A stretch of 64,000 nucleotides of DNA from Bilabrum cf. latius. Lineage: Eukaryota. Each line of letters starts with the position of its first letter. The first letter of the stretch is position 1. This document shows, in pieces, positions 1-64,000 of the stretch. The notes beneath the pieces are model-generated. The model did not search any database and was not told where the DNA came from. It saw nothing but the letters and a program-made list of their open reading frames with translations. The stretch lies in NCBI GenBank assembly GCA_965178125.1, contig OZ237753.1, positions 682,001 to 746,000 on the forward strand, read 5' to 3'. The position numbers and the translations under genes are program-made.

Positions 1-3000
1 TCCATGCTTCTAGAGTCCAGCGTCCCGGTTGCATCAGCTCGAGCCTGCCGATGCAGCTCGTCGAGCCTCGGTGCGAAAGCAGCTGCTGTTCCATACTCGG
101 CTGCAGCGGCCCCCGGCTAACTCTGCGCCCAGGTTGACTGCGATGATGCCGCGCTCGCTACAGCAAGCACCCAGGCATGTGGACTCTCGATTTGGAGATC
201 GGCGTCTGGATCTGCCACCGCGGCAGCTAAGAAGCAGGCCGCGGCAGGCAGCCCACACGCAGCTAGAGCCTATGCCAAGGCCCTCGAAAAAGTAAGCACA
301 TTAGAACTGATACCTCCTTGCTCCCTGGCTTGTGCCCTAGCGACCCGGGAGCACGCTCGGATGCTCTCGGTGATAACGAAGCGCGCTGCCTGCTTGGACC
401 GGACGGACCCACCGCGCGCCCTGAGGACTGCCGCGGCTGCTCGAATGATTGCGTTCATATCCTTGCCTTCTTGTGTCCCGTCTATTGAGAGGATGGCCTA
501 TACGGCCGCGAGGCGACCATGCGATACACTGCGAGCAATCAGGCCTAGCAGTCGCCCAGCACAACCCATGATCTGCTGTCGTTCAAGCCTGGAGACCCAC
601 TCTGGCTCTGTGGGTGGGCCAAGCACCTGCAGTTCGGAGCCGCTAGAGGAGGCTGCCGCATTGCCAGAATCCCGGGGCGATGGGTGTTTCGCCAGTGTCA
701 TGGCAGAAATGAGTCCTTCAAACACGTGCTTTCCGCGAGTGCCGATGCTCCTTGCGCACACAAACAGAACGTCGAGGGCAACGCACAAGCGACGGAAGGC
801 CGCAATGCGCTGCTAGTCCATCGACTGGGACTCTCCGCCTCTGGCTAGCGCTCTGAGGATGGTGCTGGTCGTTGAGAGGTACTTGGGGTCCACCGAGCAT
901 CCTCGGCGTCGGGCAGCTGCGATGATCTCTCGCATCGCTGCGTCCAATGCGACGGCAAGACTGCCAGCAGCCTAGTTGCCAGCAGAGCAGGCTGCCCGGT
1001 TCCTGTGTCGGGCACGACTCCGGCCGCACGCCGCCACAGCAAACAACCGCAGCCAATGCGAAGTAGCAGCCAGGGTATCTCCCTCACTAGACGTGGCAAT
1101 TTCACCCGCTGCCTGGGACAAGGACGCATCCACAGCCTATAGAATTCTGCCGCAATCCGCTTGAGCATCGTTTTTGGCCTGCAGTCGCGCGTGCTAGCTT
1201 GAGAACCCGCCTGCTTCGAGCAAGAAGGGCGTGCCCGCCACGAGGCACCCAGCCGCTTCCACAGCAAGCATCACATCCTATGAATAGGGTGCGAGGGATT
1301 GCATTGCCCGCTCCGCTTCATCGACCGCCTCGCGGAGCACATCCATGCGGAGGTCGTGATCGCGACGGCCCACGCAGGCGCCTGCCACCGACAGGATCGC
1401 AAACACGTCCGATCTGTTCCCCTGTTGCACGAGCTGTTTCAGCCGCGCCGTAAAGGCGGCCTGCATTGCCGCTTTCGGAAGCCTGGGCCTGAAGTACTTC
1501 GCTATGGCAATCGTAGCGCTTGCGTGTTGCAAAGCGATGCCAACTGACGGCACAAGCGAATCGACATCCACATGGCGCCCGTCCAGCTGCAGTTTCCAGG
1601 TAGCAGGCATCACGCCACTACCACTGTCGAAATCCTAGCCAACTCCTGCTTGTGCTTGCCCAATAGACAGCTAAGCAATATAAGCCCTCTCGTCAGACTG
1701 TACATCGTGCTGTGGCACAGCCGATACCCTCGCTCCAGCAAACATGGCCGCGTACGTAGCCACGGTGCTGCACCGGGCACCTAGCAGCAACTCAACACCA
1801 AGTGCAGGCGTCACCTCTGGGACAGCGAGAACTCCCCGTTCGGCCGTCTCCCTCTCAATTGTCGCGAACCGAACGACATCACTGTGGCGCACAGGCCTAC
1901 CTGCCACACCAGTCATCACGCCAGCAATCGAAGGCGGGTCTAGACAAGGGGCCTCATGGGGCAGCACGACGTGCATAATGCCATCTTGATACTTGCCTTT
2001 ACCATTGTTGCTTCCATCCGCTCGGCTAGGGCCACTGGACGCCTCGCCAAAGCTGTTCCCTACAAAAACCTTGCATACAGCGGCACCGACAATGGCGCAG
2101 CACTGCCGCGCAGCGACACCGGCAGCCGCAGACTCTGCTGTCGACAGTGGCATGTCGGTTGTCTTTTGCGTGTCCCACCCAGGCGCCGCACCCTGCGCCC
2201 CGTTCGCTGGATCTGTTCCATGCGACTCCTGCAGACAGCACAAGGGCCATGCCGACGCGGCGCACGCGAGTGCCCCGGCCCAGTCGCCTTGCAGCAGGCA
2301 CACCGATGCCCTGGAAGGCAGACCCAGCACACCGGCCTTCAGATACATCGATTTCGCACCCACGGCGGTGCCGCTCGTCCATGCTACGTGGCCCTCGTAC
2401 AGGTGCTAGACTGCCTGCCCCAGTCGGCTGCGGCGCGGCGGGATCCAGCTGTGCCCCAGCGCACCGGCCGGTGTGTGCAGCCCATTCGACGGTAGTAGTG
2501 CCCCTGTGTCGCGATCGCTTTGGCTGCTAGGCCTCTCCGTAAGGGAGTTCTGCTTGGTCGTTCGCACCAGCACCTGTCCCCACTTACCCTGGAGCACCCC
2601 TGCCCTGCTGACGAGGTGCCAGTCCTCGCGGCCCATCTTGCGGCGAAGCAGAGCCAGGATGGCAGCTGCAGCGGCAGATAGACGCTAGGCGGCTTCTCGG
2701 CTGCGACTGTCCGCTGCAGCATCCAGAGCTGTATGCGCCACGAGCCTTCCGAGGCGCAGCCAGGCCAATGGAAAGGCAAGAGGTTGGCCAGATTTCGACT
2801 CGTCCTCATCTTCCGTGAATGCGTCTGCTCTGCCGGAAGCCGCCATCAGCACGGCCTGCCTCACCATGCCGCCCCTGCGAGTAGCCAGCTCCACGAGACG
2901 CAGCAGCGCGATTGCTGCGTCGATTCGACCCGCATCCTGTAAGCTGGGGCGACCCTCAGCGTGCGTTGCGTCCGTAGCGGCTGCTGCAGGCAGGGCGCCA

Positions 3001-62100: not shown

Positions 62101-64000
62101 GCCTAAGAAGAACTCCTTGTATGATCTGACGGTACCGTTGCGCCTCATGAACAGCAGCGCGAAGGAGCCACCCCAGCGGTCTGGCCGTGCACTTTGCATG
62201 ACACGCACTGCCAGATCCTCCACGCCGTCCTGGTCCAAGTCTCCAATGGATGTCCCATGAGATCCAAACCCGTTGGACTGCTACGGGAAGTCGCCCGGCA
62301 GTCCACCAGTGCCTTGCGCGATCTTACTGGCCGACACAATCTGCCCGGCAGCAACAGGCGATACAGAGGCCGAAGGTGTGATGGATGCAGTTGGCGTGAT
62401 GCTGGGCGTCACCGAAGGTGTGACGGATGCGGTTGGCGTGACTGAAGCAGTTGGAGTGACACTCGCTGTCACGGATGGTGTAGGGCTCGCAGCAGGCCCG
62501 CCCATGCTCACCACGAAGATCGCACCTGCATCCGTTGCCCCCGTGTCGTCCGAGATGCCGCTCAGCACCAGATTCGCACGACCGTCGCCCGTCAGGTCCG
62601 TAAACGCCGCCACAATCACCAGCTGCGTGCCTGACCCCACCAGCCCAGACAGGCCTGGTGTGCTCGGCCGTAGCACCAGCACGCTCTTCACCGCATCTGT
62701 GGCGCTGTCCACGTCAAGATGCAGGATGTGCACGGCGCCGTTGTTGGATCCCCCCGTGCTGTCTCGAGGCGCGCCCACGCCTACGTCCTAGATGCCGTCG
62801 CCGTTCAAGTCGCCCACATTCACAACGTTGAAGCCGAAGCGGGACCCGCTCTGGATCGTGCCCGACGGCACGCCCTCCTGCCCGTCCGTGATCACACGCA
62901 CAGATCCAGATGCCACTGCGCCTGACGACGTCACGGTCAGCAGCACCAGGGCGTCCGAGTCGGAGCCCCATGCGCCCACGGCCAGACTCACGGGGTGCCC
63001 TGCATGCCGCGGAGGCAGGGCCGCCATGCCTCGAGATAGGAGAGAGAGCTTCGGCGAGATGCCGCTGAGTCCACCACCTGTAGCCTGCGAGATCCTCTTG
63101 TAGCTCTTGATGGTGTCTTGCTCCGTCAGCAGCATGATCAGCACGCAGCCGCCATTTGTCACACCGTCGTCGGTGGCATCAGCTCCGACGGCGATGTCGT
63201 TGAGTCCGTCCGAGTCGATGTCTCCCAGCGTGCCGATGGGCGACGTGCTGAAGCGGTCACCAGCACCGAAGTACGCTGTGGGCAGGCCGGAGTATCCCGA
63301 CTGCAGCCTGGTGTGGTTGGTGACCTGTGCCTGGTCGTTCATGCGCACAATGAACGCGCGACCCTGACTGCTGGTGATAGTCTCGTGCCCTACAATGAGC
63401 CTGGGTTGGTCACCATTGTGTCCGTTGGGCTGGTCCAGCCGAGTCGGAGCCTGACCGAACTCCGTGCTCGAGGTGCTGCCGATGCTCTCGATGAAGTTGC
63501 CGCCCACGCCCAGCCAGTACTCGTTGTAGTCTTTCACCGTGCCGTCCGACTTCATGAACAGCAGGGCGAAGGAACCAGCGTTAGTCACGTCGCTGTGATC
63601 GCTCTGGAACACTTGCACGGCGAGGTCCGCCACGCCGTCGCCGTCCATGTCGCCGACCACGCTTGCTGTGCGGCCGAACTCATCGCCGGCCCGCGGAAAG
63701 GAGGCTGGGAAGCCACCCGCTCCTCTTGCGACTTTGGTGGCCGACACGACAACGCCGGCAGCAGCAGGTGAAGGTGATGGTGTAGGGCTCGCAGCAGGCC
63801 CGCCCATGCTCGCCACGAAGATCGCACCTGCATCCGTTGCCCCCGTGTCGTCCGAGATGCCGCTCAGCACCAGGTCCCGGCGCCCATCACCGTTCAAGTC
63901 CTGCATTGTGGCTATCAGTGACAGCTTCGAGCTGTTACTAACCAGCCCAGACAAACCTAGGGTGGTCTGGTCCAGAAGCACCACACTTTTCACGGCATTC
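56155..64000 (-). CDS. Giant type-I membrane protein with FG-GAP (integrin-alpha-like) repeat modules, Ser/Pro/Thr linkers, a Cys-rich juxtamembrane motif and TM helix (5' end outside window, >2600 aa)
   Basis: All minus ORFs 62788-63993 through 56272-56892 share one frame, separated only by about 15 TAGs. Many GDLDGDGxxDIAVGAP motifs; [47 protein letters not shown] at 56155. Confidence 0.88.
57181..58105 (-). repeat. Coding minisatellite: 11 copies of 84/78-bp units encoding SPSASA(SA)[20 protein letters not shown]
   Basis: Near-identical units differing mainly by one 6-bp (SA) indel. Confidence 0.95.
58474..60817 (-). repeat. Intragenic direct duplication: about 58474-59143 matches about 60148-60817 (about 670 bp, offset 1674)
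   Basis: Identical translated ORFs (58911-59141 and 60585-60815; the [10 protein letters not shown]... block) and matching nucleotide text. Confidence 0.9.
59551..59685 (-). repeat. 30-bp coding tandem repeat (about 4.5 copies; SVSPTPSIT[P/S])
   Basis: tgtgatgctcggagttggagagacactcg repeated at 59551, 59581, 59611 and 59641. Confidence 0.9.
60883..64000 (-). repeat. Intragenic direct duplication: about 60883-61289 matches about 63613-64000 (one 18-bp indel); partial third copy about 62483-62570
   Basis: Shared text ttgcacggcgaggtccgccacgccgtcgccg...ccacacttttcacggcattc. Confidence 0.88.

Follow-up and report, generated by a model that had tools for sequence, protein, structure and literature searches.

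Cases in which the stop codon UAG has been uncoupled from UAA are few. A reassignment restricted to UAG, with glutamine as its meaning and UAA kept as a stop, was reportedly described by Panek et al. in 2017. Among the uncoupled cases, one source counts an uncultured rhizarian, Iotanema, Scotinosphaera, Protocruzia, an uncultured ciliate, and several lineages of phyllopharyngeans; it gives the UAG-only glutamine code, with UAA still terminating, for Iotanema spirale, for Protocruzia tuzeti, and for two lineages of phyllopharyngean ciliates (PMC11687900). It also lists the reading of both UAR codons as glutamine in many ciliates, ulvophycean green algae, Hexamita, Streblomastix, and Amoeboaphelidium (PMC11687900). 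UAG is also given as leucine in the uncultured rhizarian and some ciliates, as serine in Scotinosphaera, and as glutamate, together with UAA as lysine, in an uncultured ciliate (PMC11687900; PMC10553269). Each new origin tests the coevolution of eRF1 and suppressor tRNAs, and whether GC-rich genomes dominated by TGA stops tend to lose UAG. The subject here is a stretch of 64,000 nucleotides (contig OZ237753.1, positions 682,001 to 746,000 of the forward strand; called the window and numbered from its first letter). It has a GC content of 62%, its genes are eukaryotic, with GT..AG introns that are few and short, and UAG is a sense codon in it, with glutamine as its clearly best-supported meaning.

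How does this locus compare with the described systems? As in Iotanema, Protocruzia, and the phyllopharyngeans, UAG is sense with glutamine as the best fit, UAA is not sense, and UGA terminates. Unlike them, the window has 62% GC and comes from a genome with contigs no shorter than 64 kb; uL1, uL13, and LipB are of the bacterial (mitochondrial) type, and the nearest named relative is the stramenopile Cafeteria. Iotanema is an anaerobe, and ciliates are AT-rich. The layout of the code matches NCBI table 15. UAA is retained as a stop in the Iotanema-type code, whereas it stands at none of the 16 gene ends seen in the window. In the UAR code, UAG is glutamine as it is here, but UAA is glutamine too, and the window has no in-frame TAA in 16,965 codons. 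The leucine, serine, and glutamate systems share with the window the uncoupling of UAG from UAA; on the log-odds score described below, however, leucine reaches at most -8.5, serine 1.5, and glutamate 6.3, against 16.8 for glutamine. The window very probably belongs to the nuclear genome of a protist with mitochondria, high GC, and few introns, in which UAG is sense, most probably for glutamine, UGA is the terminator, and UAA is never sense.

The open reading frames (ORFs) carry the first part of this argument. Under the standard set of stops, the longest ORF in the window is 966 amino acids (aa). Reading TAG as sense gives top ORFs of 3751, 2614, 2077, 1722, 1625, 1561, and 1010 aa, and reading TAA as sense leaves the ten longest unchanged. 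With TGA as sense, many medium ORFs lengthen, as is expected when the stop triplet most frequent in GC-rich DNA is taken away, and the largest stays at 966 aa. Across 16 in-frame segments of coding sequence (16,965 codons), 90 TAGs stand in frame 0, from which TAA and TGA are absent, the two zeros being partly built in by how the segments were chosen. The +1 and +2 frames of the same segments hold 136 and 138 TAGs, 33 and 44 TAAs, and 252 and 283 TGAs, respectively. At these off-frame densities, frames of thousands of codons lacking both TAA and TGA cannot be due to chance. Five additional in-frame TAGs in exon 1 of uL13 (34036, 34042), exon 1 of the TBC gene (47617, 47656), and OSCP1 (14872) bring the total to 95, and TAG occurs in 16 of the 17 gene models, the ORF at 53725-54552 being the sole TAG-free model. 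An earlier note on this DNA had estimated roughly 90 to 100 in-frame TAGs in all, interrupting nearly every gene, which matches the count, and the sites it quoted (48978, 49041, 40743, 7622, 12944, and 47656) are all genuine in-frame TAGs. Omitted from these counts is the part before 17187 of the frame at 15192-20069, which has 6 TAGs and is non-coding in appearance.

The 17 gene models, for which Pfam families were sought with TAG read as X, are as follows.

3 to 6233, reverse strand: open frame of at least 2077 aa, cut off by the left edge of the window; 18 in-frame TAGs; no Pfam family.
6752 to 7912, reverse strand: NT5C-like (HAD) 5'-nucleotidase (PF06941, E 3.2e-6); TAG at 7622-7624; TGA end.
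8228 to 13291, reverse strand: open frame of about 1690 aa, rich in low-complexity sequence; 15 TAGs, including 12944-12946.
13462 to 15042, reverse strand: OSCP1 (PF10188, E 5.3e-67); predicted GT..AG intron at about 14234-14345; TAG at 14872-14874; TGA end.
17187 to 20066, forward strand: hydroxyacylglutathione-hydrolase-like metallo-beta-lactamase protein with long extensions (PF16123, PF00753); TAGs at 17514 and 18189; TGA end.
21264 to 22157, forward strand: putative 298-aa lysine/arginine-rich protein; no Pfam family; 4 TAGs; TGA end.
22645 to 33897, forward strand: open frame of 3751 aa; no Pfam family; 13 TAGs, including residue 998 (25636-25638).
33952 to 35167, forward strand: uL13, bacterial-type (mitochondrial; PF00572, E 1e-40); intron 34076-34166; TAGs at 34036, 34042, 34376, and 34586; TGA end.
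35482 to 36166, forward strand: PRL/PTP4A-like phosphatase (PTP4A1-3 structures, E 5e-30); intron 35586-35700; TAG at 35720; TGA end.
36539 to 37544, reverse strand: uL1, bacterial-type (mitochondrial; PF00687, E 3.6e-56); intron 37232-37322; TAG at 37037-37039; TGA end.
37690 to 38637, reverse strand: LipB octanoyl/lipoyl transferase (PF21948, E 1.2e-40); TAGs at 38272-38274 and 37834-37836; TGA end.
38808 to 41450, forward strand: ERO1 (PF04137, E 1.2e-90); intron 38907-39128; TAGs at 39186, 39852, 40743, 41058, 41070, and 41448.
41851 to 43524, forward strand: protein kinase (PF00069); TAG at 42721; TGA end.
44282 to 47919, reverse strand: RabGAP-TBC protein (PF00566, E 1.3e-51); intron 47286-47605; TAGs at 44756, 44843, 45977, 47617, and 47656; TGA end.
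48554 to 53486, forward strand: NEK-like kinase with a TPR region (PF00069, E 1.9e-45); intron 48744-48831; TAGs at 48978, 49041, 49656, 51432, 52218, and 53406; TGA end.
53725 to 54552, forward strand: putative 276-aa ORF; no Pfam family; no TAG; TGA end.
56158 to 63999, reverse strand: FG-GAP repeat protein of at least 2614 aa that continues past the right end of the window (PF01839, E 7.1e-59); 15 TAGs; TGA end.

Several of the family matches were obtained with ORFs whose extents differ from those of the models: uL13 at 34082-35167, the PRL-type phosphatase at 35702-36166, uL1 at 36539-37231 (reverse), LipB at 37690-38745 (reverse), ERO1 at 39027-41450, the protein kinase at 41716-43524, RabGAP-TBC at 44282-47311 (reverse), the NEK-like kinase at 48804-53486, and OSCP1 at 14347-15042 (reverse). 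Splice joints in RNA contigs support the introns of the uL13, PRL, uL1, ERO1, TBC, and NEK genes. Pfam agrees with the families that the earlier note had assigned to uL1, uL13, LipB, ERO1, the HAD nucleotidase, the TBC protein, and the NEK-like kinase. The gene that it called a kinesin, at 8228-13393 on the reverse strand, finds no such backing, as no Pfam family was matched by the whole ORF at E ≤ 0.001 or by its first 600 residues at E ≤ 0.1. Any motor-like motifs in this ORF are degenerate.

Which amino acid does TAG stand for? In the alignments with homologues, TAG was entered as X, which keeps the query from biasing the residue call. The clearest column is ERO1 site 40743 (CEKCRLWGKL-TAG), where 27 of 29 homologues have Q, one has E, and one has R; the proposal that this is a typical glutamine position was well founded. 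Both kinase-domain sites of the NEK-like protein (48978 and 49041) have Q in NEK1, and the first has Q in NEK7 as well. At uL13 site 34376 and uL1 site 37037, Q is the residue of the best structure match. Not every column is of use: ERO1 site 39186 is variable, and the R, S, K, D, T, and A found at TAG sites in three distant homologues of the 2077-aa ORF (29 to 34% identity) are uninformative. When 30 columns are scored by home-made log-odds in the manner of Codetta, Q comes first at 16.8, followed by E at 6.3, S at 1.5, and K at -4.0, with all others at or below -4; the sixth-ranked residue has -8.5, with Leu, Tyr, and Trp at or below that value. Q thus leads E by about 10 nats overall.

A close relative, known from database ORF fragments that are 81 to 95% identical to the window proteins, adds to this evidence. 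Its fragments have Q at all three of the window TAG sites that they cross (P0001, P0032, and P0034). One is site 40743, crossed by P0001, the relative's ERO1. The other two are residues 1521 and 1652 (the second at 1278-1280) of the 2077-aa ORF, which is represented by P0031, P0032, and P0034-36 at 81 to 89% identity. Where the fragments end is also telling, in that five of seven stop exactly before a window TAG, four of them belonging to the 2077-aa ORF. This is what would be expected if a standard-code gene caller had met TAG there in the relative too. These results come from fragment searches, which gave two matches for the 2077-aa ORF (one crossing a TAG) and one for the 3751-aa ORF (none crossing), and from a representative-sequence search for relatives, which gave eight matches with one new TAG crossing. 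The reading of UAG as glutamine, put forward by the earlier note from the letters alone, is supported by ERO1, by NEK1, by the close relative, and by the 30-column score.

A more distant lineage is represented by a metagenome contig of 3287 bases and 65% GC, L001, whose product is orthologous to the 3751-aa protein at 52% identity (L001:3-3287). The frame contains four TAGs and no TAA or TGA in 1095 codons, against 11 and 18 TAAs or TGAs in the other frames. One of its TAGs lies at the same codon as that of window residue 998 (25636-25638), and two others align to CAG and CAA in the window. On sequence grounds, at least two related lineages share the in-frame TAG trait with the window organism.

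Are the TAGs present in the DNA of the organism and retained in its transcripts? Words sampled from the window were found at a rate of 0.98-0.99 in four DNA runs of one study, and at 0.52-0.80 in three runs from two other studies. Over 34000-53900, DNA run X3 is identical to the window at every letter and continues through the introns. Contigs from X5, X6, and X7, which come from two studies, skip six GT..AG introns (34076-34166, 35586-35700, 37232-37322, 38907-39128, 47286-47605, and 48744-48831). Because the skipped stretches are bounded by GT..AG on the strand of the gene, these contigs represent spliced transcripts; their RNA nature is drawn from the spliced joints, no run being recorded as RNA. 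At least 13 of the 22 in-frame TAGs in 34000-53900 lie inside spliced RNA contigs with no differences. Among the contigs listed, a single letter differs in 19.9 kb (40143 T>C, in X7), and the contig over 48832-52309, in the NEK-like kinase gene, has no differences. No CAG occurs at a TAG site in the spliced transcript contigs listed. Since the TAGs are kept in spliced contigs, their removal by editing or splicing is ruled out for the bulk of transcripts. The earlier note had suggested a check for edited or spliced-out TAGs and for CAG at these sites, and the outcome, with TAG in the spliced contigs and an identical sequence in X3, favors translation of the TAGs as they stand.

Termination in the window is accounted for by TGA, which closes all 16 of the gene ends seen, TAA and TAG closing none. 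ORFs of at least 200 aa that end in TAA do occur, and all 17 share their positions with genes that are read in another frame or from the other strand. Could TAA also be sense? The glutamine codons CAA and CAG are used 150 and 400 times, so that CAA makes up 27% of the standard glutamine codons; by this ratio about 30 in-frame TAAs would be expected, and none is seen. TAA is therefore clearly not a sense codon. TGA may be nearly the sole stop in use, and UAA may be close to unused. Among the bases that follow in-frame TAGs, none is strongly preferred (G 29, C 28, A 18, T 14). A special case is ERO1, the last codon of which before the TGA stop is itself TAG (41448-41453: ...DKKN-TAG-TGA). With TAG as glutamine, the C terminus reads ...DKKNQ, and the homologue P0003 ends in ...DKKNE. 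Standing behind a predicted membrane span, the ...KKNQ tail resembles a KKXX-type endoplasmic reticulum retrieval signal.

The evidence has to be weighed against three other explanations, the first of which accepts that TAG is sense and makes it glutamate or serine. A considerable number of sites lean in that direction, or at least away from glutamine. Glutamate and serine are second and third in the 30-column score, and with ERO1 site 40743 and the near relatives removed, Q is still first and leads E by only about 2 nats. TBC site 47656, which the earlier note took for a glutamine position, has E in its sole structure match (USP6NL), and that claim does not hold up. In the structure match of LipB, site 38272 has S and site 37834 has E, and the PRL site has N or S in PTP4A1-3 structures. 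The TAG at residue 1182 of the 3751-aa ORF aligns to GAG in L001, and one L001 TAG aligns to AGC in the window, beside an indel. NEK7 has A at 49041, so that of the two NEK sites proposed as glutamine, 48978 stands in both NEK1 and NEK7 and 49041 in NEK1 only. Bacillus-type chains have T at uL13 site 34376, and E. coli-type chains have K at uL1 site 37037. Comparison of the four paralogous modules of the FG-GAP protein gives Q at one of nine comparable sites; one site has E in both paralogues, one has P in three, and one has G, with no single amino acid favored. The FG-GAP and distant-homologue columns, taken alone, favor S. Many TAG sites fall in variable columns with non-Q residues in the homologues, and because no mutation is easier than that from CAG to TAG, finding Q in a relative does not by itself prove synonymy. 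All of this counts against glutamine. On the other side are the 27 Qs to a single E at ERO1 site 40743, the Q at every site crossed in the close relative, the two Qs of NEK1, and the 10-nat lead over E. A meaning of glutamate or serine is thus improbable, and glutamine remains clearly the best-supported reading of the codon from the alignments.

Might UAG instead be ambiguous, encoding an amino acid inside genes and still terminating close to the ends of mRNAs, in the manner of codes whose stops depend on context? The TAG at 41448 directly before the TGA of ERO1 is of the kind that such a code would use, and the window offers only 16 gene ends on which to judge. Yet TAG is found at none of these ends, P0003 has a residue, E, where the last ERO1 TAG stands, and the base after in-frame TAGs lacks any marked bias; such ambiguity is less probable still than a change of amino acid. 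Lastly, the TAGs could go untranslated altogether, lying in pseudogenes, arising from assembly errors, or being edited or spliced out of the mRNA. No evidence in support of this was found in the runs and contigs, although rare variants are lost in contigs, which leaves room for the editing of a minority of transcripts and is a further point against a uniform sense reading. Against it, only TAG occurs in frame, and never TAA or TGA; the X3 sequence is identical and the four DNA runs hold nearly all sampled words; spliced RNA contigs retain the TAGs; and one TAG is conserved in the 52%-identical orthologue. Untranslated TAGs are hardly credible. UAG as a sense codon, most probably for glutamine, is the reading carried forward here.

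How might such a code operate? Genes with 13 to 18 TAGs would be inexpressible otherwise, and their mRNAs carry the TAGs, which indicates that UAG is translated efficiently. A tRNA-Gln with the anticodon CUA, one base removed from the CUG isoacceptor, would decode UAG, and eRF1 would have lost recognition of UAG while keeping that of UGA and presumably UAA. Both components are known from other stop-codon reassignments and would be expected here by analogy. The window itself contains no eRF1 gene, no tRNA genes according to ARAGORN, and no match to Rfam. The change may have been eased by TGA-dominated termination in a GC-rich genome, in which few genes would have needed a TAG stop.

As to the identity of the organism, the best named match to ERO1 is from Cafeteria roenbergensis (38% identity). 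In a quick, unfinished, single-gene tree of ERO1, the query and its close relative fall, on a long branch, in a Cafeteria group of six rows (SH-aLRT 95), with an oomycete and a chytrid outside it. A stramenopile, and specifically bicosoecid, placement is therefore tentative, coming from ERO1 alone. The earlier note's guess of a bicosoecid or other stramenopile fits both the match and the tree, so far as one gene can carry it. A fornicate or a ciliate is made less likely by the mitochondrial-type genes, the high GC, and the long contigs, partly on general knowledge of the biology of these groups. The GC-rich, intron-poor genome resembles that of Cafeteria, which has about 70% GC (10.1101/751586).

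Is the code new to this part of the tree? A search of full-text literature, with subscription journals largely outside it and supplements not covered, found no report of a stramenopile or bicosoecid with a reassigned nuclear stop codon, which leaves room for a description by the depositors of the 2025 runs. The supposition that this might be an undescribed independent origin is consistent with that result, with the same reservation. The UAG = Gln code is already known; what appears to be new is its occurrence in the window lineage and in at least two relatives. A bolder proposal, which has an even chance of being correct, is that UAG went to glutamine independently in bicosoecid-related heterotrophic stramenopiles, as the first non-standard nuclear code of stramenopiles, with UGA effectively the sole terminator and at least three lineages sharing it, namely, the window organism, the relative that is 81 to 95% identical in protein, and the environmental lineage at about 52% identity. 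With related lineages apparently at hand and a standard-annotated outgroup in Cafeteria, whose proteins are in NCBI, one could put a date on the origin and work out the order of its steps. In practical terms, standard-code gene callers split nearly every gene of such a genome, and the database proteins of the close relative are fragments ending at TAG.

A number of smaller observations concern individual genes. Readthrough was considered at the in-frame TGA at 14344-14346, between the two OSCP1 ORFs, and rejected, as this triplet lies within the predicted intron, GTGAGT...CAG, which is about 110 bases long. The long frame at 15192-17186, ahead of the glyoxalase-II-like gene, has 6 TAGs, includes an AT-rich stretch, and shows no homology, and an antisense ORF of 675 aa at 15201-17228 belongs to no family. 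The PRL/PTP4A-like phosphatase ends in CCVVS, a prenylation-type tail. The ERO1 gene includes a run of about 23 glycines. For the ORF at 53725-54552, a protein atlas gave a weak PARP-catalytic-like lead (score 0.90). In each of the runs compared, many contigs are interrupted or joined to other sequence at 45133-45225 and 51305-51330, which suggests short GC-rich dispersed or simple repeats. The giant FG-GAP protein consists of four propeller-like modules with Pro/Ser/Thr-rich linkers between them, and its stretches of about 230 aa at 58474-59172 and 60148-60846 are 97 to 100% identical, with the same TAGs in both.

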